64,000 nt of DNA from a bacterium (lineage in GTDB: Bacteria > UBA10199 > 2-02-FULL-44-16 > JAAZCA01): NCBI GenBank assembly GCA_963674695.2, contig CAXXGI010000001.1, positions 928,001 to 992,000 of the forward strand, in the 5' to 3' direction. Positions within the stretch are counted from its first letter, which is position 1. Each line of letters opens with the position of its first letter. The notes beneath the pieces are model-generated. The model worked only from the letters and a program-made list of their open reading frames with translations. It made no database searches and was not told the origin of the DNA. The position numbers and the translations under genes were made by a program. Shown piece after piece: positions 13,411 through 63,235 of this stretch.

Positions 13411-13460
13411 TGCGCTCTCCTTTCCGATGGGGCGATCGATCGCGTTATGCAGATGGAGAA

Positions 13461-13768: not shown

Positions 13769-13770
13769 AA

Positions 13771-14781: not shown

Positions 14782-14820
14782 GGGGCGCGCTCTAACAGAA
14801 AGGCCTGCGTGGCGCAAGCA

Positions 14821-14848
14821 TTGACACTTCCGCCCCATTGCCTACAAT
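14821..14848 (+). promoter_or_regulatory. Sigma70-type promoter for the Gld-like ABC operon
   Basis: TTGACA-N16-TACAAT ending 9 nt before ATG 14858. Confidence 0.6.
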
Positions 14849-14857
14849 CCGCCGCGT

Positions 14858-15793: not shown

Positions 15794-15866
15794 ACGGTAA
15801 ACCGTGAACGGTGAACAGAAAATCGTTCACGGTTCACCGTTCACCGTTTACGGTTAACGGTTCACG
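15790..15866. repeat. Inverted heptamer arrays (GTGAACN)n / (GTTCACN)n
   Basis: About 4 GTGAAC-type units overlapping the stop codon, then about 6 GTTCAC-type units ending just before ATG 15870. Confidence 0.85.
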
Positions 15867-15869
15867 ATT

Positions 15870-16586: not shown

Positions 16587-16596
16587 GCGTGAAACA

Positions 16597-18189
16597 ATGC
16601 CCAAGAAGAACGCGATCATCATGGTCCTGACGGTGCTGCTGCTCCTTGCCACCGTCAACGTCATCGCTGCACGCTTCCCCCTGCGCGCCGACCTGACGGA
16701 AAACCGCACCTATACGCTCGCGCCAGCCACGCACGACATTCTGAAACACTTGGACGACATCGTCTCGATCACCGTCTATTTTACCGAAGAGCTCCCGCCA
16801 CAGCTGACCACGCTCCGGCGAAACGTGGAAGACCTGCTGGCCGAAATCAAACGCGCCTCGAACGCCCGCGTCCGGGTTGCCTTCGTCGATCCGAACAGCT
16901 CCATGCTGGATGAACAAAAGGCCGCGCTTCTGGGTATCCCGCCGATTCAGCTCAACGTCCTCAAACACGATCGCCAGGAGGTGGCCAAGATCTATCTGGG
17001 GATGGCCGTCACCTACGGAGACCAACAACAGGTCCTGCCCGTCGTCCAACGCCTGGAGACACTCGAGTATGATCTGGTCGAAGCGATCCTCAAGGTGACG
17101 ACGAAGGAGATGCCGCCGATCGCCTGGTGGGAGACGCCAACCGACAGCGCGGCCGCCGGGGGATTCAGCCTGATCCGCCAGGCGCTCGAACGCCGTTATA
17201 CCATCGTCCCGCTGAACGCGGAGACGGCGATCGATGCCGATCCGAAGCGTTTTCCCGCGCTGGTGCTCGCCTCACCTCGCACGTTCTCGAATGAAGCGCT
17301 CGTCTGGCTCGACCAATACCTCATGGGCGGCGGCCGCATCATCGCGCTCATCGATCGGTTCGATATCGATGGGCAACTCAACGTGACGCCCGTCGAGACG
17401 AACGTGACGGAGCTCTTGACCCACTACGGCGTGACCGCTGACGACGAACTCGTGCTCGACACTGCAAACGCCATGGCCTCGTTTTCCGGCGGCATTGTCA
17501 CCTATCACATGCCCTATCCGTATTGGCCGGACGTGCAGAAAGCATACCTCAATTCGGACGAGCCGATCGTGGCCGACCTGGAATCGATCGTCCTGCCTTG
17601 GACGAGCCCGCTCACCCTGGCCACGACCGCCGCTGAAACCGGCACGCCCCTGGCCACGACCACCGATCAGGCCATCGCGATCCCCGCACATGAGGCACAG
17701 CTGGATCCACAGGCCGCCGCCGAAGCGATGGCGCAAGGCAAACCGGCAACCGCCGTCTTGTCCGCCCTGCTCGACGGACCGTTTTCGAGCTTCTTTGCCG
17801 ATCGCGACCGCGCGCCCAAAGGGGCGACCCTCATCGGCGAGAGCCCCGCCAGCGCGCGTCTGTTCGTCGTGGGATCATCGCGCTGGGTGAGCGACTCATT
17901 TCTGCAGGTCTTCCCCGCCAACGCCGCCTTCTTCCAGAATGCAGTGGACGCCTTCGCCATGGGCGATGCCCTCATCGGCATCCGTTCGCGCGAGCAGACC
18001 ACGCGACCGATCGCCGCGCTCTCTGAAACAGGCATCGCTTTCTTCCGGTGGACGAACCTCCTCATCGGCCCGATCATCGTGTTGGTCATTGCCCTGGTCG
18101 TCTTTCTGATGCGACGTGCACGATCGAGGTCGATCCAAAGACGCATCGGCTCACGCCGCGAACAGAGAAAAGCGAGTCCACCCGCATGA
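16597..18189 (+). CDS. GldG-family ABC auxiliary component
   Basis: RADLTENRTYTL, LEYDL, LDQYLMGGG, LIGIRSR; N- and C-terminal TMs. Confidence 0.85.
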   Translation: MPKKNAIIMVLTVLLLLATVNVIAARFPLRADLTENRTYTLAPATHDILKHLDDIVSITVYFTEELPPQLTTLRRNVEDLLAEIKRASNARVRVAFVDPNSSMLDEQKAALLGIPPIQLNVLKHDRQEVAKIYLGMAVTYGDQQQVLPVVQRLETLEYDLVEAILKVTTKEMPPIAWWETPTDSAAAGGFSLIRQALERRYTIVPLNAETAIDADPKRFPALVLASPRTFSNEALVWLDQYLMGGGRIIALIDRFDIDGQLNVTPVETNVTELLTHYGVTADDELVLDTANAMASFSGGIVTYHMPYPYWPDVQKAYLNSDEPIVADLESIVLPWTSPLTLATTAAETGTPLATTTDQAIAIPAHEAQLDPQAAAEAMAQGKPATAVLSALLDGPFSSFFADRDRAPKGATLIGESPASARLFVVGSSRWVSDSFLQVFPANAAFFQNAVDAFAMGDALIGIRSREQTTRPIAALSETGIAFFRWTNLLIGPIIVLVIALVVFLMRRARSRSIQRRIGSRREQRKASPPA

Positions 18190-23080: not shown

Positions 23081-25339
23081 TTATCTGCCGGTATATCGAA
23101 TCTTCATACGCAGTCGCAGGACGGCGGCGAAGCCGATGAGGAGGGAGAACCCTGCGAAGGTCAGCCAACGATCGATCGTGCGGCCGTCATCGACGAGCGC
23201 ACAGCTCGAAGAACCGCCGCCGTCGAGATCGCCCGTTCCGCTGTAGGCGGAGGTGTCCGCACTGACGGAAGCGAGCACATTCACGGCGTTGACCTTTCCC
23301 GCGCCGTAGCTGTTGGCCGCAACGACGGTCTTGGCCGTCATGCCGTCGGTGGACGCGCCCGTCTGCAGGGCGGTGCGCACCTGACTCACCGAAAGCGTAT
23401 TGTTGCGCTCGAGCAAGAGCGCCACGATCCCCGTCACATGCGGCGAGGCCATCGAGGTCCCGGCCGCCTTGTAGTAATTCTCCCCTACCGTAATGGCGGA
23501 AGAGAGTGTGGACCCTCTGGCCTTGGCCGCAATGATCGGCTCGCCGGGCGCAACGATGTCGGGCTTGGTGGTCTCCGTTGCATCCGCCTCCGGTCCGAGG
23601 CTCGAAAACGAGGAGAGATCTGCAGTCGTACTTCCATATCCCCCGTCGGCGACGACCGCCTGATCATAGGTGATGCCGTTATCCCCCGTCCAGGATGAGG
23701 TCGCTGCACCCACGGGTTTGGGCGGCATGAAGCTCCCGACGGCGATCACGCCCGATGCTGTGGAGGGAACGGTGGCGGTGTAGAAGCTGTCACCATCGGC
23801 GAGCGCATATCCGGCCTCGGCACCCGCGCCCACATCGAACCCCGCACCGGCGACGTTCTGCAAAAAGTCATGGACGCTCGTCACATCATAATAGAGCCAC
23901 ATGTGCCCGGTGCACGCGCCGCCCGAGGCGCGGATGACCACATCGAACCAATAGTTGTTGAGGGCCGAGCCGCGGCTGCCGGAGGGCTTGAAGAGCACCT
24001 GCGCGTGCGGGCGATCGTTGCGCGAGTCCTGGGCATCCACACCGATGGATGCGATGACGGTCCCGTCGGTCGCGGTCACATCATCGGACGTATCGGTCGC
24101 GAAGGGGACGTCGCCCGTCGCGAGTTCGGCATCGTCGGTCGTGGCGATCCCCGGGAAGGTGAAGTCCTGGCTGGCGCGTCCTTCGGTGTAGCCGAGAGCC
24201 GCAACCGAACAGGTGTCCTTCTGGCCGGCATCGAGCCAGGTCTCCACGAGCGACCCGCCGGTGAAGAGGGCGGCGGCGGAGGCGCCGGAGAGCACCATCA
24301 CGCGCACGGCCTTGGACTCGCCCGCGGCGACGCTGATGGAGTGATGCAATCCGCCCAGATAGGTTCGCTGATCGCCGGAGAAGAGCGCGGGCACAAGATC
24401 CTCGTTGCCCGCCGCGTTGACGATGATGCGCCCGCCCTTTGTGGAGGAGAGCGCGGTGAGTCCCTGTTCGAGAAGCGAGGTCCCGTCGTGCGCGCCGATC
24501 GACGTCCCGAGGCTCAAGTTCACGACCGCCGCCTTATCGAGCACATCGGCCTTCTCGAAGATCACATCCACGCCTTCGAGGACATTGGTCCCAAACGTTC
24601 CACCGGAATCGCCGTTGTTGCCCGCGCCCACGAAGACGAACATGATGTCGGCGAGATTCGCTACCCCTGTATAGGTCGCATTGCCCCCCGCGGCGATGCC
24701 GGTGACGTGCGTACCGTGCACACCGCCCTGCCCTTCGTCCGTGATGGAACAACTGCCCGCATCGATCTGCCCCTTCGTGCAGGTCAGAAGCGTCCCGTCC
24801 TCAGTCTGCTGCACATACTGCACGCGCGTCTTGCCCGTGCTCTTCAGAAAATCCGGGTGCCCGTAGTCGAGCGATTCATCGACGATGCCGACGACAACAT
24901 TGGTGCCGTGATAGGCCGTGCCCAAACCCCCGCCGCCTTCCTGCACCGTCTGCACGCCGGAATAATACCGCGCGGTATTCATCTTGCTCGAGAGGTGACC
25001 GGCCGCCTCCATCGCCGTGACCTCCGCGCGCGCGGCGATGATCTCGACCACATCGAGCGGCAGGCGCGCCGAGAGAACATCGCCCGCGATCGCGCCGACG
25101 CTCCCGCCCCATGCCTCCACGGCATCGACCGTCGCGTTCACGTCGCTGCTCTTGATGAAACAGGGGACGAAGAGCGCATCGTTCTCGCGCACGAGCGACT
25201 TGGAAGCGAGCGCTTCCCCCTGCTGCGCATCCCGCACGATCGCGCGAAGCGAAAGATCCATCGGGGAGGCCTGTGCAACCGCACTCGCGGTGCACAACGC
25301 CATCGTCACCGTCATCATAATGATCGTTCTTCGCATCAC
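23081..25339 (-). CDS. Secreted S8 subtilase with C-terminal Cys/TM sorting signal
   Basis: VGIVD, HGTHVTGIAAG, NAAGNE, GTSMASPHVTG; signal peptide; ends GGGSSSCAL-TM-basic tail. Confidence 0.92.
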   Translation of the reverse strand: MMRRTIIMMTVTMALCTASAVAQASPMDLSLRAIVRDAQQGEALASKSLVRENDALFVPCFIKSSDVNATVDAVEAWGGSVGAIAGDVLSARLPLDVVEIIAARAEVTAMEAAGHLSSKMNTARYYSGVQTVQEGGGGLGTAYHGTNVVVGIVDESLDYGHPDFLKSTGKTRVQYVQQTEDGTLLTCTKGQIDAGSCSITDEGQGGVHGTHVTGIAAGGNATYTGVANLADIMFVFVGAGNNGDSGGTFGTNVLEGVDVIFEKADVLDKAAVVNLSLGTSIGAHDGTSLLEQGLTALSSTKGGRIIVNAAGNEDLVPALFSGDQRTYLGGLHHSISVAAGESKAVRVMVLSGASAAALFTGGSLVETWLDAGQKDTCSVAALGYTEGRASQDFTFPGIATTDDAELATGDVPFATDTSDDVTATDGTVIASIGVDAQDSRNDRPHAQVLFKPSGSRGSALNNYWFDVVIRASGGACTGHMWLYYDVTSVHDFLQNVAGAGFDVGAGAEAGYALADGDSFYTATVPSTASGVIAVGSFMPPKPVGAATSSWTGDNGITYDQAVVADGGYGSTTADLSSFSSLGPEADATETTKPDIVAPGEPIIAAKARGSTLSSAITVGENYYKAAGTSMASPHVTGIVALLLERNNTLSVSQVRTALQTGASTDGMTAKTVVAANSYGAGKVNAVNVLASVSADTSAYSGTGDLDGGGSSSCALVDDGRTIDRWLTFAGFSLLIGFAAVLRLRMKIRYTGR

Positions 25340-47363: not shown

Positions 47364-48855
47364 GCTCCCCTGCGGGGACGATCATGCGCACGCGTGTCGC
47401 CAGCGTGCAGAAGGTCTTCGCCGAGGCAAGCGCCGGGCCGAGCCACATCCTCGGAGCGACGCCGACGCCGATGAGGATCGCCAGAGCGGGAATGAGCAGC
47501 ACATATTCGCGCAAACCGAGATCACGCCGATGGCGCGCCTCTTCATCGGACGATCCCGCGATCAATCGCAGAGCGATGCGTCCGACGGCGACCGGCACGA
47601 GCACAACGCCTGCGAGCGCGATGGCCGCCATGATCGTCTGCGTCTGAAAACTCCCGAGGAAGACGAGCCACTCGCCCGCGAAGACGGCAAACCCCGGAAC
47701 GCCCGCCGCCGCGACGAGCAGGACCAGCAGCACCACCGCCATGCGCGGAAGACGCGCACCGAGCTTCGCGCTTCCATCGAGCGCATCGGTCAAACCACGA
47801 CCGGAGAGCATGCCGGCCATACCCAGAAGTCCAACGCTGACGAGCCCCTGCGCGGCCAGCACCACCACCGCCCCCGCGCTCGCCTCCACATTGAGCGACG
47901 AAAACCCGAGCAGAACGATTCCCGTCTGGGCGACGGCCAGATACGCGACCGCACGCTTGAGCGTGGGCTGCACCGCAGCCATGAGCGCACCGGCGATGAT
48001 TCCGACGAGTGCGAGAATGCAGAGCACGGGTACGGCAACCGCGAGCGCCTCAGGGAACAGCGGCATCGCAAAGCGATAGAATCCGTAACAGCCCATCTTG
48101 AGCAGGCCCCCGACGATCAGGATCGCCCCGGCGGTGGGCGCCTCGGCCACCGCATCCGCGAGCCACATATGCAGGCCCACGACGGCAGCGGGGATGGCAA
48201 ACGCGACCGCCATGGCCAGGAAGAGCCAGCGCTGCACCGCGAAGGGGAAATCGATCGCGTACCAATCGAGCAGGTCGAACGAGCCCACCACGCCCGCGGC
48301 CGCGAGCATCGCCACGAGGAGCAGCATGCCGCCCGCCATCACGAAGAGCAGGAAGGTATGCGCCGCGCGCAGGCGCCCGGAGAGCCCGAAGCTGCCGACC
48401 AGGAAGAAGAGAGCGATGAGCACCACCTGCCAACTGACATAGAAGAGAAAGATGTCGAGCGCGGCGAAGACGCCCATGAACCCGGCTTCCGCCACGAACA
48501 GCCAGACATGAAATCCGCGCACGCGTTCATCGACTTCATTCCAGGAGACGAGCACGCCCATGGGCACGATGAGCGCGATCATCAGCATCAGGAGCATCGA
48601 GGCGCCATCGACGCCGACGTGATAGTGGATGCCGAAGGCGGGGATCCAGGAGGCAATCTCACCGAGTTCGAACTCGCGCGAACCCTCGATGCCAAACCAG
48701 GCCAGCGCACAGAGCGCGAGCGTGACGAGCGCCACGACGAGCCCCACCGCGCGCACCGCCCCCTTCCACCGCGCCGGCACGAGCAGGATGAGCGCCGCAC
48801 CGAGAAGCGGCAGAAAGATGATCGCGGTCAGCATGTGGGAAAGCAGCAGTTGCAT
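47353..48855 (-). CDS. nuoM: NuoM-like antiporter subunit (divergent)
   Basis: WIPAFGIHYHVGVDG, LHMWLADAVAEAPTAG, LLKMGCYG, FAGEW, DLGLRE. Confidence 0.88.
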   Translation of the reverse strand: MQLLLSHMLTAIIFLPLLGAALILLVPARWKGAVRAVGLVVALVTLALCALAWFGIEGSREFELGEIASWIPAFGIHYHVGVDGASMLLMLMIALIVPMGVLVSWNEVDERVRGFHVWLFVAEAGFMGVFAALDIFLFYVSWQVVLIALFFLVGSFGLSGRLRAAHTFLLFVMAGGMLLLVAMLAAAGVVGSFDLLDWYAIDFPFAVQRWLFLAMAVAFAIPAAVVGLHMWLADAVAEAPTAGAILIVGGLLKMGCYGFYRFAMPLFPEALAVAVPVLCILALVGIIAGALMAAVQPTLKRAVAYLAVAQTGIVLLGFSSLNVEASAGAVVVLAAQGLVSVGLLGMAGMLSGRGLTDALDGSAKLGARLPRMAVVLLVLLVAAAGVPGFAVFAGEWLVFLGSFQTQTIMAAIALAGVVLVPVAVGRIALRLIAGSSDEEARHRRDLGLREYVLLIPALAILIGVGVAPRMWLGPALASAKTFCTLATRVRMIVPAGEREP

Positions 48856-48861
48856 AATTTC

Positions 48862-48935
48862 CGTGACTCGTGACTCGTGACTCGTAACTCGTAACTCGTA
48901 ACTCGTGAACCGTAATTCGTGACTCGTGAACCGTA
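48862..48935. repeat. Heptamer array upstream of nuoM
   Basis: Mixed GAGTCAC/GAGTTAC/GGTTCAC units on the coding strand ending just before ATG 48855; a half-REP (48945-48980) and a further palindrome (49036-49091) lie next to it. Confidence 0.8.
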
Positions 48936-49143: not shown

Positions 49144-51132
49144 TCACCCCAGCACCAACACCCCGACGACGACGACGGCGCCGATGAGGACATAGAGCAG
49201 ATACTGTCGCACGGCACCGGTCTGTGCAGCGGCCGCGACCGACGCGAAGAAACCGATCGCGCGCGCGCTGCCCCCGATGAGAATACCGGACAGAAACGTG
49301 CGGTCGATCAATTTCCACAAGATCACGCGCGCGACCCACCCGATGGGGCGCACCACGAGCGTCTGCGCTATTTCTTCGAGATACCAGCCCGAGCGCGCGC
49401 TGTGATAGAGCGGCGCGATGCGCCGGAGCAGACGCTCCGACCAATCGCGGCGCTGCGCATAGATGAGCCAACCCAGGATCGAACAGTGCACCGTCCAGAG
49501 GACGGCGATGACATAGAGGATGATCTGCACCGCGCGCGAGACATTATTCATGCCGCGGCTGACCTCGCCCGGCAGGAGTTCGCCCAGCCAGACGCCGAAC
49601 CGATCGGCGCCGCCCAGGATTTCGGGGACGGCGAGCACCCCGCCGAAGAGACAGGCGGTGGCCAGCAGCATCAGCGGCACCACCATCGCCACGGGCGATT
49701 CGGTCACGCGTTTGAAACGATCGAGTTCGATCTCGGTGCGACCGAAGAAGATCGCTCCCGCCACGCGAAAGATCGCAAAGGCGATCATCCCCATGGCCGC
49801 GAAGGTCATGATCCAGATGAGGACCTCGCCGCGCGCATAGGCATGGATGAGAATAGCGGAGAGCCCCGCAAATCCCGCCAGGGGAACCACGCCCGCGAGC
49901 GTAGCCGCAGCGATGACGAAGGTCCAGGCCGTGATCGGCATGCGCTGACCCAGGCCGCCCATGCCGAAGAGATCGCTCTCGCCCTGCAGGGCACGCATCG
50001 CACCGGCGGCGGCGAGCATGCAGAGCAGGAGTGCAAGCGCGACGACCACGAGATGATAGACGGCGGTGGTAAAGACCCCCAACCCCGCCGCGATGAGGAC
50101 GATGCCGAGCTCGGCGGCGGCGATCTGCGCAAGGATGCGTCGCACATCGGTCGACGCCAGCGCCGTGGCGCCCGCCGCGAGTGCGGTGATTCCGCCGAGC
50201 AACGCCATCGCCTTGAGGACACTCGGCGCGAGCGCGAAGATGCCATCCATGCGCGCAACGAGGGCGACCGCCGTAGCGCCGATGACCACCGCCTGCAGAA
50301 AGGCCGCGACCGGAACGGGCGAACGCGTCGTCGAGGGAAGCCAGAACAAAAACGGCACCTGTGCGGAACGCACCGCCACCGCCACGAGCAGCAGCAACGC
50401 GATGACGTGCGCAACCGGCAAAAACGCGGCCTGATACTGCACTACGTTTTCGAACGCGAGCGCGCCATCGCCGGGAGGAACATCGGCCGCCGCCATCGCC
50501 CCGACGATGAGAAAGCAGGCGGCCATGAGCGCCGCATCGCCAATGCGATCGACGACGAAGACCACGACTCCATGCTGCGCACCGTCGCGATCGGAGGAGA
50601 CGAATCCCGCCGTCAGCGATGCACACAACCCCACGCCCATCCATCCGACGATGAAGAACAGAAGGTTCTCCGCCAGCACCGCCATGAGCGCGAAGAAGAG
50701 CATCGCATGGATGAGAGAAGCGGCGCGCGCCAAGGAGCGCCGCCCCTCCATCGCGCCGGGCAGCGCCATCTGCGCAAAGAGGGCCGCGATGCTGAGCGTC
50801 AACCCGAGCGTGAGCGAGAGCTGATCGAGACGCAGACCCACGTCGACCACGAAATCCTTTGAGGCGATCCAGGTGAAGAGCGGTCCGGTGATCGCCGCAG
50901 CAGAGCCGACCTCGAATCCCATGAGCGTCCAAAACAGGACGATCATGATGGCGACGGTGAGCAGGGCACCGACGACGCCGATGAAGACGCTCAGCGGCCG
51001 AAATCGTTCATGCTCGGCGCGTGCGCCCGCCATCGCGATGAACGCGCAGCATGCCGACGACGTCAGCGGAACGGCCAGGACGCACCAGATGAGTGTCTGC
51101 AGTGAAACGATCTGATAGAGCGATTCGAGCAT
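49144..51132 (-). CDS. nuoL: NuoL-like antiporter subunit (divergent, full length)
   Basis: GLRLDQLS, GWMGVGLC, RIGD, SAQVP..WLP, MGGLGQRMPIT, ESP..MVVPL, QTGAVRQY. Confidence 0.88.
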   Translation of the reverse strand: MLESLYQIVSLQTLIWCVLAVPLTSSACCAFIAMAGARAEHERFRPLSVFIGVVGALLTVAIMIVLFWTLMGFEVGSAAAITGPLFTWIASKDFVVDVGLRLDQLSLTLGLTLSIAALFAQMALPGAMEGRRSLARAASLIHAMLFFALMAVLAENLLFFIVGWMGVGLCASLTAGFVSSDRDGAQHGVVVFVVDRIGDAALMAACFLIVGAMAAADVPPGDGALAFENVVQYQAAFLPVAHVIALLLLVAVAVRSAQVPFLFWLPSTTRSPVPVAAFLQAVVIGATAVALVARMDGIFALAPSVLKAMALLGGITALAAGATALASTDVRRILAQIAAAELGIVLIAAGLGVFTTAVYHLVVVALALLLCMLAAAGAMRALQGESDLFGMGGLGQRMPITAWTFVIAAATLAGVVPLAGFAGLSAILIHAYARGEVLIWIMTFAAMGMIAFAIFRVAGAIFFGRTEIELDRFKRVTESPVAMVVPLMLLATACLFGGVLAVPEILGGADRFGVWLGELLPGEVSRGMNNVSRAVQIILYVIAVLWTVHCSILGWLIYAQRRDWSERLLRRIAPLYHSARSGWYLEEIAQTLVVRPIGWVARVILWKLIDRTFLSGILIGGSARAIGFFASVAAAAQTGAVRQYLLYVLIGAVVVVGVLVLG

Positions 51133-51133: not shown

Positions 51134-51439
51134 CTATCCCTTCAAGAGCGAAAGGTCATCCACATCGCGCCCGGCGTCTTTGCGCTCGAGCGCACGGGCG
51201 AGTCCAAAGCCGACGATCACCTGCAGGACCATGATGACGAAAAGGGTGAGCACGAGCACCCGGCCCGCCAACGCAAGATTCCAGCGGGAGAAGGTCACGA
51301 CCGCCACCACCGCCGCCAGGAGCATGAGCTGTGCCGACAAGAGGATCGCCACGAGATTTCGGCGTACGATCATGCCGAATGCCCCCAACACAAAGAGCAA
51401 CGCACTCGCGGCGAATGCCGGATGCAACGCGGGAATCAT
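51134..51439 (-). CDS. nuoK: NuoK-like subunit (divergent)
   Basis: 101 aa, LLFVLGAFGMIVRRNL...DVDDLSLLKG, three TMs. Confidence 0.88.
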   Translation of the reverse strand: MIPALHPAFAASALLFVLGAFGMIVRRNLVAILLSAQLMLLAAVVAVVTFSRWNLALAGRVLVLTLFVIMVLQVIVGFGLARALERKDAGRDVDDLSLLKG

Positions 51440-51933
51440 CGAACCTCCCGGGTCATGACGACGGCGCTGATGAGCGCAAAGAGCGCGGCCAGCACCGACA
51501 GTTCCATGAAGGCCGAATCCAAAAACGTCGCAGCCAGGAGCGGCATGCCCTGAAACCCGCGCGGAAGCGGCGGCATCATCCCGGCCGATGGCGGCACGAA
51601 TGCCACGAGGATGAGCACCCCCAGATACGCGACCGCGATCACTCCGAGGACCGTGCCGAATCGAACGGACCGGCGCGAACACCGCTGCGCCTCCTGCGCC
51701 GAACCGTTTAGCGCGGCCGCGAAGATGGTCGCCCCACCGATGGCGACGAGCATGCAGGCGAGTGCGGCCATGCCATCGGCGAGCAGCGCCACGAGCCCCG
51801 CCGCCGCGATGAACGTCACCGCAAACCAACGCGCCCCGTCACGCAGCTCGCTGCGTGTCACCGCGGCAAAGGCCGCAACGACGACGATGGTCGCACAGAC
51901 GACGACAGCGATCCCCTCGACGATCGACGGCAC
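51436..51933 (-). CDS. nuoJ: NuoJ-like subunit (divergent)
   Basis: Five TMs, C-terminal ELSVLAALFALISAVVMTRE; ATGA overlap with nuoK. Confidence 0.75.
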   Translation of the reverse strand: MPSIVEGIAVVVCATIVVVAAFAAVTRSELRDGARWFAVTFIAAAGLVALLADGMAALACMLVAIGGATIFAAALNGSAQEAQRCSRRSVRFGTVLGVIAVAYLGVLILVAFVPPSAGMMPPLPRGFQGMPLLAATFLDSAFMELSVLAALFALISAVVMTREVR

Positions 51934-51943: not shown

Positions 51944-52876
51944 TCACCACAAGGTCATGAGGGCCAAGGCAACCCCCGTGACGAACAGGTTGATACATGC
52001 CAACGGCAGAAACCATCGACGCATGCGCTGCCATCTCGCCGATTCGCGCTGCGCATCGAGCCGGCGTTCGATCCAACCGATCGCTGCGCACAACGCCGCC
52101 GTCTTGATGACGAAGACGACGAGCCCGGCCCCCATGCTCCACGTGCCGATGGCCCAATCGAGCAACTGATGTCCTGCCACCGGGGTGGCGATGAGATGGC
52201 GCAGCGCCGCGCCATCCAGCGAGGGAATCGCCCAGCCGCCCAGAAAGAGCGTCGCTCCCCACGCGCCCAACACCACCAGCAACATGCCGTCGGCCATGCG
52301 GCGAAAGAAGACGGCTTCGCAAGCCACGGCGCCGGGCACACTGAATGCCCACAGCTGGGCGGCCCCGAAGAGAAAGAGCACAAACCCGATCGGCTGCACC
52401 ACGATACCCCAGCGGAGGAGATCGGCGCCGCCGACATCGAGCATGGCATGCAACCGCATCGATCCGTGCACCAGGGCAACCGCACCGGCGACGAAGAGCA
52501 GCGCAGCCCCTGCGGAGATCAGGCGCAGACGCTTGGCGGGCATCGTCTCGCCATCATCGGCAAGCGTTTGTGCAAACGCACTCGCCAGGATGAGCGCCAA
52601 AATGATCAGCGCGCTGCTGGGCAGATCGGCCAGCGGCGAGATGAAGGCAATCGCACCAATTGTCGTCGTCGCCATGAACGGCACGAGCCCGAGCGCGGCC
52701 GCCGCCGTCAGAAAGGCGATGACGGGAGCCAGCAGCGAGAACGCGGGAAGATCGCCGCTCGCATGTGCGCCCGCATATCGCGCACGCGTCATCCGACAGA
52801 CAGACCAGACGAGTCCGCTCGACGCCACGAGCAGGACGCCAACGGAAACGATCGCTTGGATGAATGCAGCCAACAT
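51944..52876 (-). CDS. nuoH: NuoH-like subunit lacking the cytoplasmic quinone-site loops
   Basis: LLAPVIAF, LVHGSMRL, WGIVVQPIGFVLF, ATLFLGGW, FVIKT, WFLPLACINLFVT. Confidence 0.8.
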   Translation of the reverse strand: MLAAFIQAIVSVGVLLVASSGLVWSVCRMTRARYAGAHASGDLPAFSLLAPVIAFLTAAAALGLVPFMATTTIGAIAFISPLADLPSSALIILALILASAFAQTLADDGETMPAKRLRLISAGAALLFVAGAVALVHGSMRLHAMLDVGGADLLRWGIVVQPIGFVLFLFGAAQLWAFSVPGAVACEAVFFRRMADGMLLVVLGAWGATLFLGGWAIPSLDGAALRHLIATPVAGHQLLDWAIGTWSMGAGLVVFVIKTAALCAAIGWIERRLDAQRESARWQRMRRWFLPLACINLFVTGVALALMTLW

Positions 52877-52915: not shown

Positions 52916-53041
52916 CAGACTGCTGACAAAGTCTTCTCGCGCTGTCATTCCCGCGGGGGTAAGCGGGAATCTCGATTATCACAGCACGTCGAGATCCCCG
53001 CTTTCGCGGGGATGACAACGGCAGGGTTTGTCATCAATCTG
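52916..53041. mobile_element. MITE with 15-bp TIRs and GGT target duplication, inserted in another palindromic repeat
   Basis: CAGACTGCTGACAAA ... TTTGTCATCAATCTG, flanked by GGT (52913-52915, 53042-53044); internal REP; host repeat CCCTCCCCCTTGTAAGGGGAGGGT|TAGGGTGGGG. Confidence 0.8.
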
Positions 53042-53093
53042 GGTTAGGGTGGGGTAGATCGGGGACTCATGATCTACCTCCCCCCATCCCCTC

Positions 53094-53939
53094 TTACTGA
53101 ATCCCCCACTTGTCGAGCGTGCCGGGACTGGAATCGTTGACGATGCTATAGGTGACGCCATCTTCCTGCTGGGCCTGTAGCTTCAGAAACTCCTGCGCCG
53201 CCGCCCGGCCCTCGAAGCTCTTCTTGTCCTTCATCAGATCGCGATAGGTCCGCAGCGCTTCCTGGCGATAGGGCTCCGCGCGGATGAGCAGCTCGTCGGG
53301 GGCAATCGCGCTGTTGAACAGCACCCAGCTCCACTTGCGGTGCACAAACCAGACGTCTTCGTTCACGCGCGCCCAGAGGAGTCTGCCCCGACGGTTCCAC
53401 TCCCCCCTCGGTCGCCGTTTGAGAAAGGCCTTGATGCGCGGCAGCACCTTGTCGGGATGTCCGCGCACCTCGCGCAGCAGGGTGTAGAAATCGGCCTCGG
53501 CCGCCCAGGAGCTCTTCGGGAAATCGGAGAGGAGGCGACGATACTGCACACCTGTGTAGGGGATGTAGGTGATGGCGTGCTCATAGGCGAACGATCCCGA
53601 CCCAAAGCGCGCGTTCAACCCCTGCGCCTCGGCCTGCATGCAGGCGGGCGTGCGCGGCGCGCCCTTGGCCCAATAGCACTTCTTCTCCGCGCGTTCGGTG
53701 AGGCCATCCTGCAGCCGATCGAGCAGGCGCCCACAGAGTGCGAGCGCCTCGGGCGTACGCTTTTTCTCCTTCGGGTGCGCCTGCGCCCAGCGACAGATGA
53801 GCTCGGCGGCTTGCTCCGGCTGCGTCTTCATCAGGGCCTTGCCCTGATCCAGCTCGTCGGCCCCCGCCGGCGCCACCCAGAGAAAGGTGCCCACGAGGAG
53901 GCAACACACGATGCGAGCGATATCAGTGATCCGTTTCAT
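53094..53939 (-). CDS. Secreted helical TPR-like protein
   Basis: Signal peptide ending APAGA-DE; YRRLLSDFPKSSWAAEA and FLKRRPRGEW resemble BamD/CpoB-type TPR units; start overlaps the upstream nuoA-like ORF. Confidence 0.75.
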   Translation of the reverse strand: MKRITDIARIVCCLLVGTFLWVAPAGADELDQGKALMKTQPEQAAELICRWAQAHPKEKKRTPEALALCGRLLDRLQDGLTERAEKKCYWAKGAPRTPACMQAEAQGLNARFGSGSFAYEHAITYIPYTGVQYRRLLSDFPKSSWAAEADFYTLLREVRGHPDKVLPRIKAFLKRRPRGEWNRRGRLLWARVNEDVWFVHRKWSWVLFNSAIAPDELLIRAEPYRQEALRTYRDLMKDKKSFEGRAAAQEFLKLQAQQEDGVTYSIVNDSSPGTLDKWGIQ

Positions 53940-54321
53940 CGATTCCCCCTTCTTCAAAGAGATCATCATCCGTGCGGACCGGACGGGCACCGGCCAGGGC
54001 CCGAGGGACACAGCCGATGGCGACGAGCAGCAGCGCGACAAGGCCCGCGATGAGGACGACGTGGAGCAGGGCCGCTATCGCGTTCTCCCCCTCGGACTGC
54101 AGGATGAGCCCCGAGGCCGCTGGAATGAGCGCCAGGGCGATGAGGCCCAGAAACGCCAAACCCGCAGCGCCCAGCACCGCCGCATCTGTGCGCGGCGAGG
54201 GCAGCAGACCCGGAGCGGGCGACGACGACGCCCGCCGACGGCGCATCCGCACAACAAACACCAGGGCGATGAGCGCCGAAATGACCATCCACACGAAATA
54301 CGCCAGACCGTTGGATTCCAT
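53923..54321 (-). CDS. Three-TM protein, probable highly divergent NuoA
   Basis: TM1-long loop-TM2-TM3 topology, size and first position in the operon fit NuoA; the (Y/F)E(C/S)G and FDVE motifs are absent. Confidence 0.5.
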   Translation of the reverse strand: MESNGLAYFVWMVISALIALVFVVRMRRRRASSSPAPGLLPSPRTDAAVLGAAGLAFLGLIALALIPAASGLILQSEGENAIAALLHVVLIAGLVALLLVAIGCVPRALAGARPVRTDDDLFEEGGIDETDH

Positions 54322-54358: not shown

Positions 54359-54387
54359 AGTGTACCAGGCACGGCCCGCCATGACAA
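54359..54387 (-). promoter_or_regulatory. Sigma70-type promoter for the nuo-like operon
   Basis: Minus strand TTGTCA-N17-TACACT with a TG extension, about 38 bp before ATG 54321. Confidence 0.6.
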
Positions 54388-54482: not shown

Positions 54483-56834
54483 TTGTTTCGAACGCGCCAC
54501 ACCATAATCGTCCTGGGTTTTGCCCTCTTCGCGATGTTCTTCGGGGCAGGAAATCTCATCTTCCCCCCGGCGCTCGGGCGCCTCTTCGGCGATGGGTTCT
54601 CCTGGGCGGCGATCGGCTTTTTGCTCACGGGCGTGGGCCTCCCGCTCATGGGCGTGATGGCGGTCGCCAAGGCCGAGGGCGGCATCGACCGGATCGCGGC
54701 ACGCCTCGACCCTCGAATCGCCAAGCTCCTCTCCATCATCGTCATGCTCGCGATCGGCCCGTTTCTGGCCATCCCGCGCACAGCGGCCACCACCTTTGAG
54801 CTCGGCATCGCGCCCAACCTCCCCTGGCTGGGACTCGCCCCTTTCTCCGTCATCTACTTCGTCGTGGTCCTCTTCTTCGCCCTCAATCCGCTGTCGGTGG
54901 TCGATCGGATCGGAAAGATCCTCACCCCGCTGCTCTTGGCCGCACTCCTGGCCCTGATCTTCAAGGGACTGGCCCACCCCATCGCCGCACCGATCGCGGG
55001 CGCCACACCCCACCCCTTCGGAACCGGGCTCATCGAGGGGTATCAGACGATGGACCTGATGGGCGCGGTGATCTTCGGCATCATCATCTTGAACGAACTG
55101 CGCAGTAAAGGGGTCTTCGAAAAAAGCCTGCAGATGAAGAGCATCGTGCGCGCGGGGCTCATCTCGGCAGGAGGACTGGCCGTCGTCTACGGGGGGCTGG
55201 TCTACCTCGGCGCCACCACCAGCGCCACCATCGGCGAAATGTCGCGCACCCAGCTGCTGCTCTTCATCGCCCATGAACTCTTCGGCCGCGGCGGCGGCAT
55301 CGTCCTGGGTCTGGCCGTCTCGATGGCCTGCCTGACCACCGCCATCGCGCTCACCGTCGTCTGCGGGGAATACTTCAACAAGCTCTCCTTCGGGCGACTG
55401 AGCTACCGCACCGTCTGTCTCGTCGTAGCGGGCTTGAGTCTCGTCTTCGCCAACTTCGGTCTCGAGCAGATCATTGCGCTGGCCGTGCCGCCGTTGGTGG
55501 CGCTCTATCCCGTCGTGATGGTCCTGGTGATCCTCTCGCTCCTGAGCCCGCGCCTTTCCAACCGCAACCTCTGGCGCGGCGCGGTGGCGGGCGCCTTCGC
55601 CGCGGGGCTTATCAAGGCGATCCACATCGCCCAGATCGGCAACGAGCACGTCGATGCGCTCTTCGATCTGATCCCCTTGACCGACCACGGCCTGGGTTGG
55701 GTCCTGCCGACCGTCGCCCTCGGGTTTGCCGGGTCGCTCATCCGCGAACGCGAGGACGAGCATTTTCGCGTGCTGGTCCTCTGCCCCAGCCAGCTCGAAA
55801 CCCGCGTGGCGATCTATGACGACACCATGCCGGTCTTCGAGTCCCGCGTCCCCCACAACCTGGACCGAGCGATGGATACCTCTGAACGCATTGCGGAGCT
55901 GAACTCGCTCAAGGAACACCTGCGCGATCGCCTCTCGCAGGAACACATCGATCTGTCGACCGTGAATGCCGTGGTCGCGCGCGGAGGATTCGTGCATCCG
56001 CTTCCGGGTGGCGTCTACCGCATCGCCGAACCGATGGTGCGCGATCTGGCCGAACACGCCTGGCGCCACCACCCCTCGAACTGGGGGGCGGCTATCGCCT
56101 TCGAGATTGCCAACGAAAACGATATCGACGCCTATATCGTCGATCCGGTCGTGGTCGACGAGATGGACGAGATCGCGCACCTGCTCGGGCTGCCCGACAT
56201 GCGGCGCTCCTCCATCTTTCACGCCTCCAGCCAGAAGCAAACCGCACGTCGCATCGCCAAGAACCTCTGGAAGAGCTACGACCGCATCAACGTCATCATC
56301 GCCCACCTGGGCGAGGGGACTTCCGTCGGTGCCCACCGCAAGGGGCGCGTGGTCGATGTGAACAACGCCCTCGACGGCGATGGGCCGTTTTCGATGCTCA
56401 ACGCGGGAAGCCTCCCCACCGTCGATGTCGTGCGCCTCTGTTTCGAAGAGGGCGCCAGCCAAGAAGCGGTCCTCGCCCGTATCCGCAGTCATGGGGGACT
56501 GGCCGCCCACTTGGGCACGGCCGATGCGGAGGTGATCTGTGCGCGCGTGGCCTCGGGCGATACCAAGGCCTGCGAAGCGATCGAAGCCATGGCCTATCAG
56601 ACGGCGAAATGGATCGGCGCGATGAGCATCCCGCTCGATGGCCGTGTGGATGGCATCGGCATCACGGGCGACCTCGCCGCCTGCCCGGAGCTCACCCGCG
56701 CTATCCGCAAACGCGTACGTCACCTCGCCCCTGTCTTCATCTTTCCGAACGACTCGGAGACACACGCACTCGTCGGAGGCGTGCTGCGCGCCCTGCGCGG
56801 CGAAGAGGAAGTGCGGGAGTATGAACCGCTGTAA
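54483..56834 (+). CDS. brnQ: BrnQ branched-chain amino acid carrier fused to a butyrate-kinase-like domain
   Basis: GFALFAMFFGAGNLIFPP, IGPFLAIPRTA, EGYQTMD, ACLTTAI; then RGG, IVDPVVVDE, GRVVDVNNALDGDGPFS, LRGEE, all in one frame. Confidence 0.92.
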   Translation: MFRTRHTIIVLGFALFAMFFGAGNLIFPPALGRLFGDGFSWAAIGFLLTGVGLPLMGVMAVAKAEGGIDRIAARLDPRIAKLLSIIVMLAIGPFLAIPRTAATTFELGIAPNLPWLGLAPFSVIYFVVVLFFALNPLSVVDRIGKILTPLLLAALLALIFKGLAHPIAAPIAGATPHPFGTGLIEGYQTMDLMGAVIFGIIILNELRSKGVFEKSLQMKSIVRAGLISAGGLAVVYGGLVYLGATTSATIGEMSRTQLLLFIAHELFGRGGGIVLGLAVSMACLTTAIALTVVCGEYFNKLSFGRLSYRTVCLVVAGLSLVFANFGLEQIIALAVPPLVALYPVVMVLVILSLLSPRLSNRNLWRGAVAGAFAAGLIKAIHIAQIGNEHVDALFDLIPLTDHGLGWVLPTVALGFAGSLIREREDEHFRVLVLCPSQLETRVAIYDDTMPVFESRVPHNLDRAMDTSERIAELNSLKEHLRDRLSQEHIDLSTVNAVVARGGFVHPLPGGVYRIAEPMVRDLAEHAWRHHPSNWGAAIAFEIANENDIDAYIVDPVVVDEMDEIAHLLGLPDMRRSSIFHASSQKQTARRIAKNLWKSYDRINVIIAHLGEGTSVGAHRKGRVVDVNNALDGDGPFSMLNAGSLPTVDVVRLCFEEGASQEAVLARIRSHGGLAAHLGTADAEVICARVASGDTKACEAIEAMAYQTAKWIGAMSIPLDGRVDGIGITGDLAACPELTRAIRKRVRHLAPVFIFPNDSETHALVGGVLRALRGEEEVREYEPL

Positions 56835-56908
56835 ACAGTTCGATGGTCCGACGGTTCGTCGGTTCGTCGGTTACAGCGTTTCAATCCTGTGATAGAGCGT
56901 CAAATTCG

Positions 56909-56988
56909 ATCGAACCATCGAACCATCGAACCATCGAACCATCGAACCATCGAACCATCGAACCATCGAACCATCGAACCATCGAACC
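56909..56988 (+). repeat. Perfect (ATCGAACC)x10 array
   Basis: Ends 1 nt before ATG 56990; degenerate inverted GGTTCG(A/T)N units at 56838-56873. Confidence 0.92.
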
Positions 56989-56989
56989 C

Positions 56990-59900
56990 ATGCACACACT
57001 CGGCATCGACATCGGATCCATCTCGCTCAAACTCGCGCTCATCGACGAGAAGGATGAAGTCTGTTTCAGCCGTTGGCAACGGGTCGCCGGCACGCCGATC
57101 CCGGTGCTGCGCGCGCTGCTTTCCGAACTGATCGCCGAATATCCCGACACCGTCATCGACGCCATCGGCGTGACCGGCAGCGGGCGCGAGCTGATCACAG
57201 CACCGCTCGGTGCCCACTCCGTCAACGAGATCACCGCACAGGCGCGCGCCTGCGCGCTGATCACCCCTGAGGCGCGCACGATCATCGAGATCGGCGGCCA
57301 GGATTCGAAACTCATCATCTTCGAGAATGACGAGAGCCGCGACATCCGCGAGTTCCGCATGAACGAGCTGTGCGCGGCGGGCACCGGCGCTTTTCTCGAT
57401 CAGCAGGCCGCGCGCTTGGGCCTTTCCATCGAGCGCTTTGCGCAACAGGCAGCCGATGCGACCGACCCGGTCCCGATCGCCGGTCGATGCGCGGTCTTTG
57501 CCAAGACCGACATGACCCACCATCAGCAGGAGGGTCGCTCCATCCCGGACATCGTGGCCGGCCTCAACGAAGCGCTCGTGCGCAGCTATCTGGCCGGGCT
57601 TGTGCGCGGTGCCGTACTTCCGCGCCCGATCGCCTTCCAGGGAGGAGTCGCCTCCAACGCCGGACTCGTCTCCGCCTTTCAGCGTCTTCTCGGAATCACC
57701 TCCGAGGAATTCATCGTCCCGGCGACCCATCGCGTTATGGGCGCCATCGGCGCCGCACACCTCGCTTCGGAGCAGACCATCGACCGAAAGACCACCCCCG
57801 AAAACATATTGCTCGTCGTCGAGGGGATCGAGGAGGGCGAACCCACGGAATCGATCGGCAGACCCATGGAGCCCCTGGTTCCCCTCGCACCACAGCCCAT
57901 CGCACCAGATTTTTCCCCCCTCGACCTGGATGGGGCCTACCTGGGAATCGACATCGGATCGGTCTCGGTCAAATTCGTCGTCATCGACCGCACGGGCGTG
58001 CGGCACAGCGACTATCGTTTCTCCGATGGGCGCCCCTTTGAAACGCTCAGGCCCATGCTCACGGAACTCGCTGAACGCCGCGCGGGACACCCCTTTTCCG
58101 GCGTCGGCATCACCGGCAGCGGCCGCGAATTCATCGGACGACTCATCGGTGCCGATGTCATTCAGAACGAGATCACCGCGCAGGCAGCAGCAGCGGCATT
58201 CCTCTTGCCGAACGTGGACACGGTCGTCGAGATCGGCGGACAGGATGCAAAGTTCATGCGATTGACGGGCGATCGCGCCGCACACTTCGCGATGAATCGC
58301 GTCTGCGCTGCCGGCACGGGCGCCTTTCTGCAAGAACAGGCCGCACGTCTGGGAATCGACCTGAAGCAAGATTTTGCACGCGAAGCGTTCGCAAGTTCTG
58401 CACCCGCTACGCTTGGCGAACGCTGTACCGTCTTCATGGAATCGGATCTGGTCTCCCATCAACAACGCGGTGCCAACAAGCGCGACTTAATCGCAGGGCT
58501 CGCCCTGAGCGTGGTGCAAAACTATCTCGATAAAGTTGTTTCCGGTCATCCCTGCGGAGAACGCATCCTCTTTCTCGGCGGAGTGGCGGAAAACCGCGCG
58601 GTTGCTGCCGCCCTTGAGCGCATGATCGGAAAGACGGTCACCACCTCAACCCTGGGAACGATTTCGGGCGCCATCGGTGCAGCGCTCGCGGCATTTCATG
58701 CACGGCGCGCCGAAGCATTCTCCGAGAGCCGCTTTCGCTTTGACGCGCTGGCCGTCGAGATCGAAACCTTCACCTGCGAGGAATGCCCAAACCGCTGTCG
58801 CATCATGCGCATTCGGGGCGGGCGCGATGAGACCATGGGCGGACGCTGTGGGCGATGGGATGCCTCGGCCGCACCGAAGACGACGCCGGGATTCAACGGC
58901 GTCATCGAACGGTGGAAGGTGATGGAACAGAATCCGTCACACGTGACCCGTGATCGACAAACGCCAGCCGTTCCGTCCACGGTTCACCGTTCACGGTTCA
59001 CGAAGATCGGCATTCCCCGCGCGCTGCTCGCCTTCGACCTTCTGCCCGCCTGGCGCAGCTTCTTCGAAGCACTCGGGTGCGAGATCGTCCTCTCGCCGCC
59101 AACGGATGCCAAACTCCTGGCCGACGGGATGCGCTCTCTCGTCGTGGAGACCTGCCTCCCCATGAAAGCGTTCTGCGCGCACGTCGACTGGCTCGATCGC
59201 AACGGCGACATCGATTTCCTCTTCGCTCCTTCGATCATCATCACCGAACGCGACCGACATGGACGACACACCACCCATTGCCCGTACATCTTCTCGCTTC
59301 CGCAGTTCGCCCAATCCGCCTGTCATGTGCCGATGCTCAAGCCGGCGATCAATTGGATGCACCATCCGCGCGATGAAGTGCTCGCGATGGAAGATGTTGC
59401 ACGAACGCTCGGCCGCTCTCGTCAGGAGGGTCGGTGCGCATGGGAGAAGGCCTGTGCCGTACAGGAGGAAACGCGCGCGCAGCTTCATCGCATCGGCACG
59501 GAGCAGCTCGCCGCTTTGTGCGCGAAAACAACGGACCGCGCTTTTCTGCTCATCGGAAAGGATTACACCCTCGCCGACGGCGCGCTCTCCTCAGACATCG
59601 CCACGCTCATCGCTGATCGGGGCGAGGTCGTTCTCACACAGGACATGTGCATCGATGATTCGGGCCAATACAGCGCGGCCTATGAATCGATGTACTGGCA
59701 CCATGGCAAGGAGATCCTCGCTGCCGCCGAGCTCTGTGCGCGCACGCCGAATCTCCATCCGGTCATCATCACGAGCTTTGGGTGTGGGCCGGATTCATTC
59801 ACGCTGCGCTTTGTGCGCGACATTCTGAAGAACACGCCGCACCTCGTCCTTGAAGTCGATGAACACAGCTCTGCTGTGGGCATGGCCACGCGCTTCGAGG

Positions 59901-61144: not shown

Positions 61145-61244
61145 ACCGTAAACCGTGAACGGCAAGCATCATTGTGTTAGAGTTCACTGTTCACTGTTCA
61201 CTGTTCACTGTTCACTGTTCACTGTTCACTGTTCACTGTTCACG
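61134..61244. repeat. Inverted heptamer arrays (GTRAACN)n / (GTTCACT)x8-9
   Basis: The left array supplies the TGA stop; the right array 61182-61244 runs into the GGAGG SD of the next gene. Confidence 0.9.
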
Positions 61245-61663: not shown

Positions 61664-61747
61664 GTGACCGTTCGAACTGGCGAGTTTGCGTGTGTCCCTT
61701 CTAAATGAACGCGCAACTTCTCACCCCCCGCCGCGATAATGGGGGTG

Positions 61748-63235
61748 ATGACAAAGATTTCCGACACTCCTGTTCCCCATCGATCGATCGTTCGACCTGA
61801 CGATGAAAGCCGAACGACAGATGGGCGCGAACCCTTGATCGAGGCGTTCCTGCGCGAAGTCACCTATGCGCTCAATGCGTCGCCCGGCGAGGAGCCGGCC
61901 GATCTGGAATGGATCCGTACCACCCTCATGGAGGCAGCTGATCCCGCCGGAGCATTGCTGCCAATTCTCGTCAAGCTGGCCCATAAGTATATAGTGCCGA
62001 CGCCGATGATCGAGGATTTGGAACGTCGGTGGATGACGAAATTCGCCGCAACGACGAAGAACACCGCCCCGACGGAGGAGACGCCGAAGAAGGAGCGCAA
62101 TCGGCAGACCTTCTTCGAACTCAAGCTCACGAACACATCTTCACCGCGCATCATGATCGGCGCCGCCGCACAGGCCGATGCAGAGGATACGCCCCTGTCG
62201 GCCTATCGTCGCACGGAAATCGACACCCTCCTCGCCCTCTTGCGCGGAAGCTCGGCTTCGCAGCGCATGGCGATCGTGGCGAGTCCTTCGGGCTCCTCCC
62301 TGCGCAAGCGCTTCATCGACAGCATCCGCCTGGCCCATGTCGATCGCCTTTCCGTTTCGACCAGCGTCATCGCGCACGCCGACCCCTCTCCGGAAGCACT
62401 CGATCGCATGGAAGAACTCTTCGCTGACCCGAATCACCTGGGAGCGCTCGTTCTGCTCAAGGAGGATGAACGCGCCGTCGATCCGGCACTCGTCTCTTTT
62501 TTACGGCAGATCTTCTTCCAGAACGCCTTGCGCCATTTGATCGTCGTCGTCGAGGGCGGCAGCCAATCCCATGCCGAGCTGACGACACCGCTGGTCCCCT
62601 TCTTTCGCTCTATCGCCGCGCCCGATCGCGATGCCGTCCACGGCATCGGCCTCAATCCGAAACAGATGAATCGGTTGCAGGTCAGTCAGTATTTCTATGG
62701 CACCACGAGGCTCAGTTCCGATGAAGGCCATAGCCGCGATCAGATCGTCGACCTGATCGTCAAACAGGTGCCGCCGCTTCCATCGGTCCTGGAGGAACTC
62801 TCCGCATCGATCCCCTCCGAACGATTTCATGAGGCACTGCGCCGTCAGTCCCGGATGGACGACCTGTGCATCCAGATCCGTGACTGGACGCAGACCATGT
62901 TGAGCAGACAACAACGAGGAAACAACGAAAACGCGCCGATGCCCTATATCATCTCTTCATCCCAGGGCGGCGATGAGTGGTACGCCGATCGTCTCGAACA
63001 GCTCGGACGAACGCATCAGCTCCAGTTTCAACACGAGATCCACCCCTTCGATCCGATCGTCGTGACGCTTGGCGATGAGATGCCGCCGGAGATGATCGAA
63101 GGCACATCGGATGCTTCCGAAACCCCCCTCGATGACCCATCGGATCTGAACGCCACCGCCTCGACCGAGGCGCTCCTGATGGGCGGCCTGTTCACCTATG
63201 CCCCCATCGCCCTAAACCCCGCGGGCGCGTTTTAG
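61748..63235 (+). CDS. Orphan protein
   Basis: About 495-aa ORF; starts MTKI like the downstream ORF. Confidence 0.65.
   Translation: MTKISDTPVPHRSIVRPDDESRTTDGREPLIEAFLREVTYALNASPGEEPADLEWIRTTLMEAADPAGALLPILVKLAHKYIVPTPMIEDLERRWMTKFAATTKNTAPTEETPKKERNRQTFFELKLTNTSSPRIMIGAAAQADAEDTPLSAYRRTEIDTLLALLRGSSASQRMAIVASPSGSSLRKRFIDSIRLAHVDRLSVSTSVIAHADPSPEALDRMEELFADPNHLGALVLLKEDERAVDPALVSFLRQIFFQNALRHLIVVVEGGSQSHAELTTPLVPFFRSIAAPDRDAVHGIGLNPKQMNRLQVSQYFYGTTRLSSDEGHSRDQIVDLIVKQVPPLPSVLEELSASIPSERFHEALRRQSRMDDLCIQIRDWTQTMLSRQQRGNNENAPMPYIISSSQGGDEWYADRLEQLGRTHQLQFQHEIHPFDPIVVTLGDEMPPEMIEGTSDASETPLDDPSDLNATASTEALLMGGLFTYAPIALNPAGAF

Follow-up and report, generated by a model that had tools for sequence, protein, structure and literature searches.

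Complex I has been surveyed in forms of 11, 12 and 14 subunits (PMC3144371). What the reduced forms known so far have lost is the NADH module; their quinone module is retained, as is their proton wire. The 11-subunit complex I-like enzymes and the group 4 hydrogenases (Ech, Hyc, Hyf and Mbh) are also reduced, combining a NuoH homologue with antiporter-like subunits, and they keep the quinone module (Q-module) or homologues of NuoB and NuoD; NuoH is described as strongly conserved (PMC3144371). The Mrp cation/proton antiporters are membrane-only systems with L/M/N-, J-, K- and A-like subunits and no redox arm. To our knowledge, they do not include NuoH. Their GluTM5/LysTM7 pair is conserved (PMC13073174). 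In the cyanobacterial NDH-1MS complex, the change concerns a single subunit, NdhF3, within a working redox pump that also contains CupA. Finally, an unresolved class of "incomplete" complex I has been counted in 2,171 species, and the filters of that survey would presumably drop subunits as eroded as those reported here (PMC12361115).

The operon described here lies in a 64,000-nucleotide stretch of bacterial DNA, referred to below as the window; its genes are marked with a prime. It shares gene set (A, H, J, K, L, M and N, with A only probable) and order, subunit lengths and the NuoH fold with the membrane arm of respiratory complex I (E. coli 7P64/7Z7V), but there is no Q- or N-module within the 64 kb, the quinone-cavity loops of NuoH and, probably, NuoA are trimmed, and 11 of 14 central-axis residues of a proton-pumping complex I are lost. 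Unlike the 11-subunit enzymes and group 4 hydrogenases, it has neither the module nor the loops that dock it. The Mrp GluTM5/LysTM7 pair reads M/R in L', Q/P in M' and E/R in N', and the profile scores place these proteins outside the Mrp group (310 bits for NuoL versus 136 for MrpA in L'; 365 for NuoM versus 127 for MrpD in M'). In contrast to NdhF3, the changes involve all of the pumping subunits and NuoH. Searches of open-licence PMC and bioRxiv papers turned up no report of a membrane arm devoid of both Q-module and axis residues, although supplements to surveys may list such operons. An arm that lacks quinone module and proton wire alike and is nevertheless selectively kept would imply that these subunits can have a job beyond energy conversion. 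There is also a practical side, as the scores of NuoM' and NuoK' remain above an NCBIfam cut-off, so that a "nuoH-N" annotation in a metagenome-assembled genome (MAG) can falsely imply respiration.

Organization of the nuo' operon

The genes follow one another on the minus strand in the order promoter match, nuoA' (probable), X, palindromic spacer, H', J', K', L', M' and N' (Table 1). H, J, K, L, M and N are recognized as members of the complex I membrane set, and A by position and topology only. The promoter match is the only one in the 9.2 kb scanned; it is a weak one, since chance alone would give a mean of 1.4 over that length, and its position alone favors it. Ribosome-binding sites or overlapping start and stop codons are kept from H' to N'.

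The 132-aa ORF at the head of the operon is probably NuoA', judging from its position and the spacing of its three transmembrane (TM) helices. Its TM1-2 loop, which in NuoA seals the cavity, is about 11 aa shorter. The NuoA HMM gives it 3.6 bits, a score reached by 5 of 289 scored shuffles; hhalign against NuoA was negative, and the Pfam and NCBIfam scans returned no NuoA family match. X occupies the place usual for nuoB-C-D but has no similarity to NuoB, C, D or I, no match in Pfam or NCBIfam, and none among plasmid sequences. Its single-sequence model has a pLDDT of 47 and found no match with Foldseek. The complex prediction for NuoA', H', J' and K' returned a median of 0.31 against a mark of 0.32 and is counted on neither side.

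No remnant of nuoB, C, D, E, F, G or I was found in the 1423 six-frame segments of the 64 kb window, nor were nuoB-G or nuoI found among the 42 ORFs scanned with Pfam; the Q-module genes nuoB, C, D and I lie in none of the window's six frames. The missing nuoI proves nothing by itself, since among the matches listed 25 of 59 intact H..J runs have no intervening nuoI.

Heptamer tandem repeats (GTTACGA-, CCGTGAA- and ATCGAACC-like) occupy several intergenic intervals and lengthen the ORF calls upstream of the true M' and N' starts. Divergent from the operon is an ORF in which a BrnQ branched-chain amino acid carrier is fused to a butyrate kinase, both above NCBIfam cut-offs, followed by a 1,400-aa acyl-CoA dehydratase activase.

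Table 1. Positions of the features discussed, in the window or, for entries numbered L, in the named locus
Feature	Position	Strand	Remarks
Sigma70-like promoter match	54359..54387	-	TTGTCA-17-TACACT, TG extension; 38 nt before nuoA'
Probable NuoA'	53923..54321	-	132 aa; three TM helices; no PYECG, no D79/E81
X	53094..53939	-	281-aa orphan; signal-peptide-like N-terminal helix; start overlaps nuoA' end
Nested inverted repeats	52916..53090	.	Between X and nuoH'; which we take to be a REP-like palindrome
NuoH'	51944..52876 (52876->51944)	-	310 aa; NuoH fold, Q-cavity loops shortened, E-channel residues lost
TM1-2 loop remnant of NuoH'	52742..52798	-	Residues 27-45; ~26 aa deleted
TM5-6 loop remnant of NuoH'	52307..52354	-	Residues 175-190; ~14 aa deleted, acidic residues gone
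Eroded R..PR.R.DQ motif of NuoH'	52034..52069	-	Residues 270-281; R293 equivalent the only one kept
NuoJ'	51436..51933	-	165 aa; Y59->A; NF005163 E=5e-4
NuoK'	51134..51439	-	101 aa; E36->Q, E72->Q
NuoL'	49144..51132	-	662 aa, full length including C-terminal helix region
NuoM'	47353..48855	-	500 aa; K265, E407 kept
NuoN'	45783..47264	-	493 aa; K217->R, K247->M, H305->Q, K395->R; E133 kept
Heptamer repeats	45730-45780, 47265-47345, 48856-48900, 56880-56990, 61170-61240		Intergenic
BrnQ-butyrate kinase fusion	54483-56834	+	783-aa ORF
Kinase-dCMP deaminase fusion	13771-14838	-
Subtilase-domain proteins and orphans	41010-43751, 23081-25339, 43930-45717, 61739-63235		Two of each kind
L082 operon	6588-15222
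L083 operon	6261-15367
L084 operon	7102-15494
L085 operon	7308-15337
L086 operon	8552-15880		No X
L087 operon	6972-15247
L040 second H-J-K-L-M-N run	11635-16760	-
nuo operon with extra antiporter-like gene, L008	6301-9964
nuo operon with extra antiporter-like gene, L013	6277-9963
nuo operon with extra antiporter-like gene, L016	1852-5373
nuo operon with extra antiporter-like gene, L050	9356-12441

The quinone-cavity loops of NuoH'

Comparisons were made with E. coli K-12 and with at least 80 nuoM loci from a genome scan, the window's clade not being among those listed. Control subunits were assigned by HMM and the full-length, high-scoring ORFs were kept (54 H, 59 J, 55 K, 63 L, 78 M and 68 N).

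NuoH' is recognized by the PF00146 profile at 31.2 bits, above the curated Pfam cut-off of 27, but scores only 16.8 bits against the NCBIfam NuoH equivalog NF004741, far under its cut-off of 305. A phmmer search gave no match among PDB sequences at E<=10 and six weak matches, at around 30% identity, among 1.84 billion representatives; a word-based homologue search returned only the protein itself. In the ESM Atlas, NuoH' falls to two unnamed clusters and to a NADHdh cluster at 0.90-0.93, a borderline recognition. By these searches, NuoH' is without a close relative.

The original prediction was of a NuoH from which both quinone-chamber loops had been removed, and the two stretches that it quoted are indeed present in the ORF. 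When the protein is set against the 54 intact NuoH sequences from the fetched loci and that of E. coli, the region corresponding to E. coli 33-89 spans 31 aa compared with 57-71 in the controls, and that corresponding to 192-250 spans 45 aa compared with 58-64. Around 26 and 14 aa have therefore been deleted from the TM1-2 loop and the acidic TM5-6 loop, respectively, but removal is too strong a word, as a short remnant of each persists, at approximately residues 27-45 and 175-190. The predicted erosion of the C-terminal PR.R.DQ motif holds, with R286, P290, R291 and D295 all changed or gapped. The other affected positions (E. coli numbering) are E36, R37, G48, P49, D63, K66, E71, R148, Y156, E157, R209, P211, D213, E216, E218, E220 and E228. 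Only 16 of the 65 columns conserved in at least 90% of the NuoH controls (25%) are kept, the lowest control keeping 88%, and among the charged columns of this highly conserved set 3 of 23 are retained. The other two reading frames at this position contain no hidden loop, which rules out a frameshift or assembly artefact that conceals the loops.

The AlphaFold model of NuoH' has a pLDDT of 79, with residues 1-40 at 55-64. It displays the eight-helix fold and superposes on NuoH, NdhA and ND1 with Z up to 22.9 (for 7p64_H, Z 22.7 and an rmsd of 3.2 A over 230 residues), although this match is partly circular, since most of the sequences in the alignment behind the model are intact NuoH. Model residues 33-309 overlie E. 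coli 73-325; residues 33-37 fall on E. coli 73, which places the first deletion where the sequence alignment has it. What identifies a functional NuoH is missing from NuoH', namely the equivalog score, the TM1-2 and acidic TM5-6 loops, E157 and the PR.R.DQ motif.

In complex I the quinone cavity is lined by these loops, and salt bridges join them to NuoB and NuoCD (PMC10212512, PMC4758237), with E216, E220 and E228 of NuoH partnering R87/R91 of NuoB and R407 of NuoCD (PMC10212512). The role in the NuoB/NuoD interface and quinone channel that had been attributed to them agrees with the first of these sources. As the loops serve both functions, NuoH' would be unable to dock a standard Q-module.

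Proton-wire residues, age and selection

The loss extends beyond NuoH, to which the original prediction was confined, and the pumping subunits J', K', L', M' and N' have also lost proton-wire residues. Part of the list of residue numbers examined in these subunits is one that we take as given, and NuoK E36 and E72 are, by our assumption, counted as central-axis residues. The other part of the list derives from PMC10212512 and PMC13073174, and the remainder of the axis set consists of GluTM5, LysTM7 and the TM8 and TM12 residues of L, M and N (PMC10212512). NuoL' carries E144->M, K229->R, H254->Q, H338->V, K342->L and K399->L, and keeps R175, D178 and H334; NuoM' carries E144->Q, K173->T, K234->P, H248->V, H322->Q and H348->Q. 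Of 14 axis residues 3 are retained (in NuoL', 0 of 4), compared with 190 of the 332 conserved columns outside the axis (p=0.012) and, among the charged conserved columns outside it, 30 of 49 (p=0.014). In E. coli, K247A or K395A alone in NuoN reduces pumping to 6-20% (PMC13073174). Judged from sequence, the whole run from the probable nuoA' through X to N' is disarmed, and the losses in J to N mean that the system is not a quinone-free yet working pump. Some residual ion movement is possible because K265 and E407 of M', E133 of N' and D178 and H334 of L' remain, and three lysines have become arginine.

NuoM' has 26 relatives at 40-49% identity that score above the gap to ordinary NuoM, their sole source label being "Pseudomonadota bacterium". 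The eight NuoM residues tested are all kept in 25 of them, the remaining one having H322Q. Two quick trees, in which long rows are placed less surely, put NuoM' inside this clade, several branches having support of 97-99, with an end branch of 1.48-1.67 compared with 0.06-0.61 in the relatives. Because NuoM' nests among relatives with intact pumps, the disarming is lineage-specific and not ancient. The proposal that the loss of NuoB, D and I is old is not supported by this placement, in which the end branch of NuoM' reaches 1.67. As no relative shares the disarmed state, any newly conserved features would be invisible. In the NuoH tree the branch of NuoH' is 3.8 long; the tree is uninformative, since long-branch attraction draws the eroded proteins together.

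Across 8.5 kb there is no stop or frameshift despite more than one change per site, and H' to N' are free of stops. Simulated neutral drift of three control operons, with substitutions only, gave a mean of 12-22 stops at 70% identity (minimum 7 in 300 runs) and 6-11 at 85% identity (minimum 1). The hydropathy of L', M' and N' (1.10, 1.21 and 1.25) is higher than in all controls, whereas neutral drift lowers it, and 48 of 79 changed conserved polar columns have become hydrophobic, compared with a neutral 25-29%. The GC3 of the nuo' genes is 0.78-0.82, that of eight neighboring genes being 0.74-0.87, and NuoM' retains 73% of clade-invariant columns versus 19% of variable ones. Together, these observations reject neutral decay, though not weak constraint. 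A classical pseudogene is rejected by the open frames and by the intact codon bias and translation signals. Genome-wide erosion is likewise rejected, as the housekeeping genes MetG, Tmk and HolB in the window exceed their NCBIfam cut-offs, so that the genome is not generally eroded. Alanine makes up 16-20% of the nuo' subunits compared with control means of 9-13%, which could also reflect drift in a GC-rich genome.

Parallel loci and candidate explanations

An eroded NuoH (P0170) led to 180 plasmid records, of which six were examined (L082-L087). These come from Alpha- and Gammaproteobacteria and Actinomycetota, mostly from copper-resistance islands, and five of the six operons adjoin copper or heavy-metal genes. 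The gene order is nuoA-(X)-H-J-K-L-M-N, and nuoC, I, E, F and G are not annotated in the 18 kb read. All six keep E36/E72 of K, D/E79 and E81 of NuoA, E144/K229/H254 of L and K234/K265/E407 of M, and all six have lost E133 of N. X, in the four examined, is an eroded NuoB-NuoD fusion with an HMBD or His-rich insert, the HMBD, a copper-type metal-binding domain, being found in two. The operon may encode an ion pump that derives from complex I and is gated by metal. Searches of open-licence PMC and bioRxiv papers gave no report of this family. The window resembles it in gene order and in the eroded NuoH loops, but differs in that the plasmid pumps are largely intact, X is a vestigial NuoB-NuoD fusion and NuoM forms a clade of its own. 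The window is not a member, as its X has no similarity to NuoB, NuoD or the family and NuoM' lies outside the clade; descent of the window from the family is rejected by several branches with support of at least 97 that divide the NuoM proteins in a quick tree.

Another locus, L040 from Ca. Acidiferrales, is one among the at least 80 nuoM loci and is a single MAG contig. It carries a second, disarmed H-J-K-L-M-N run head-to-head with an intact G-H-J-K-L-M-N run. The second run has an eroded H that ends at the contig edge, M with K234V, H248Q, K265N, H322Q and H348C, N with K247A, K with its glutamates intact, and only the last 163 aa of NuoL (residues 535-686 of an intact relative). Its NuoM descends from intact Acidobacteria copies on a branch of 0.91 versus 0.067 (quick tree). 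Lost columns are shared with the window in M (16, p=0.014) and N (5, p=0.017), the overlaps in J and K not being significant. As far as its sequence allows, L040 is an independent parallel to the window's disarming. Further loop-eroded NuoH proteins, in addition to P0170, are P0123, P0131, P0125 and P0168; P0123 and P0131 are 55% identical, so that this form exists in at least two genomes. Some nuo operons (L008, L013, L016 and L050) contain an extra antiporter-like gene, as two L-like pieces or two NuoM. L013 and L016 showed many apparent NuoM losses, which we read as the result of scoring an extra antiporter-like gene against a subunit that it does not represent, and not as a disarmed NuoM.

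The explanation that we favor, with about even confidence, is that the nuo' locus encodes a lineage-specific complex I pseudoenzyme, a sealed and non-pumping membrane scaffold. A normal nuo operon would have lost its Q-module, a loss observed as far as this locus goes, after which the docking loops would have been trimmed from NuoH, where the deletions are observed, and presumably from NuoA. In J, K, L, M and N the proton wire has been neutralized, largely through size-preserving replacements (E->Q, H->Q and K->R/M/L among them), and the genes, given their non-neutral evolution, are still selected for folded membrane proteins and presumably expressed. The product would be an assembled, proton-tight arm held together by the retained NuoL C-terminal clamp. 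Its job might be structural: it might offer a partner, for instance the exported protein X, a platform in the membrane, or it might act on an intact complex I encoded elsewhere in the genome, as a brake by subunit exchange or as an aid to assembly. Less likely, with a probability of perhaps a quarter, is a slowly decaying relic without a positive job, left after complex I respiration was lost or taken over by another copy, in which selection only purges misfolded or leaky protein. The disarmed state is a singleton on very long branches, the subunits show alanine-rich drift, the neighboring BrnQ-butyrate kinase fusion and acyl-CoA dehydratase activase suggest a fermentative metabolism, and the eroded NuoH proteins P0123/P0131, P0125 and P0168 form no supported family, all of which a relic would explain. 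It is harder to reconcile with 8.5 kb of open frame at more than one change per site, with intact ribosome-binding sites, with conserved columns retained far above variable ones, and with L040, which retains cleanly only the NuoL clamp; loss of the promoter or deletion would presumably also have been a cheaper exit.

We regard as improbable a passive conduit, in which the polar wire became non-polar in order to pass a small neutral molecule (CO2, or else a short-chain fatty acid or something lipid-like), perhaps giving it to X or taking it from X. NdhF3 provides a precedent, as the charges of its lateral proton channel have given way to non-polar residues along a proposed CO2 path (PMC6981117), but it retains the ion pair and acts in a redox-driven complex with CupA. 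The 48 polar losses to hydrophobic residues, with many Tyr->Ala and Ser->Ala changes that would create space, are in keeping with a conduit, yet Tyr and Ser are lost across all subunits, as is equally expected from drift, and neither a carbonic anhydrase nor any other soluble partner with a catalytic function is present in the 64 kb window. The reading implied by the original prediction, an old and co-adapted quinone-free arm that still moves ions like an Mrp antiporter derived from complex I, would have a model in the copper-island plasmids with their same gene order, eroded NuoH and intact pumps; given the 11 missing axis residues, the nesting of NuoM' among intact relatives and the well-supported branches that separate it from those plasmids, we consider it very improbable. 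We give almost no credence to a split operon, whose subunits join NuoB, C, D and I encoded elsewhere in a working or uncoupled complex I. Split operons are common, accounting for 25 of 59 intact H..J runs among those listed and being described in PMC12361115 as well, but in split controls the share of conserved NuoH columns that is kept does not fall under 88%, compared with 25% in NuoH', and all the glutamates listed in PMC10212512 as partners of NuoB R87/R91 and NuoCD R407 are lost or deleted.

The scaffold explanation may be one instance of a broader pattern, which we advance tentatively and with rather less than even confidence, in which the complex I membrane arm has repeatedly been converted to a non-redox device. 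In the window and the Ca. Acidiferrales locus it would have taken up a new job as a scaffold that is sealed and does not pump, or as a conduit for neutral solutes; on the copper-resistance plasmids it would still pump, under a cap formed by a NuoB-NuoD shell that is free of cofactors and carries metal-binding domains. On this view the window would be a membrane pseudoenzyme comprising a whole module and kept by selection, and would amount to a series of natural knockouts of the coupling mechanism. Its substitutions divide the residues required for folding from those required for coupling, a distinction relevant to the way in which distant pumps are driven by quinone chemistry. The copper-island family, with its pumps intact and its quinone site eroded, occurs in culturable bacteria and is directly testable.

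Elsewhere in the window, a pair of large proteins with subtilase domains and a pair of long orphans that match nothing in Pfam lie near the operon. A kinase-dCMP deaminase fusion partially matches NF041025, a family of anti-phage dCTP deaminases, at 150 bits against a cut-off of 400.
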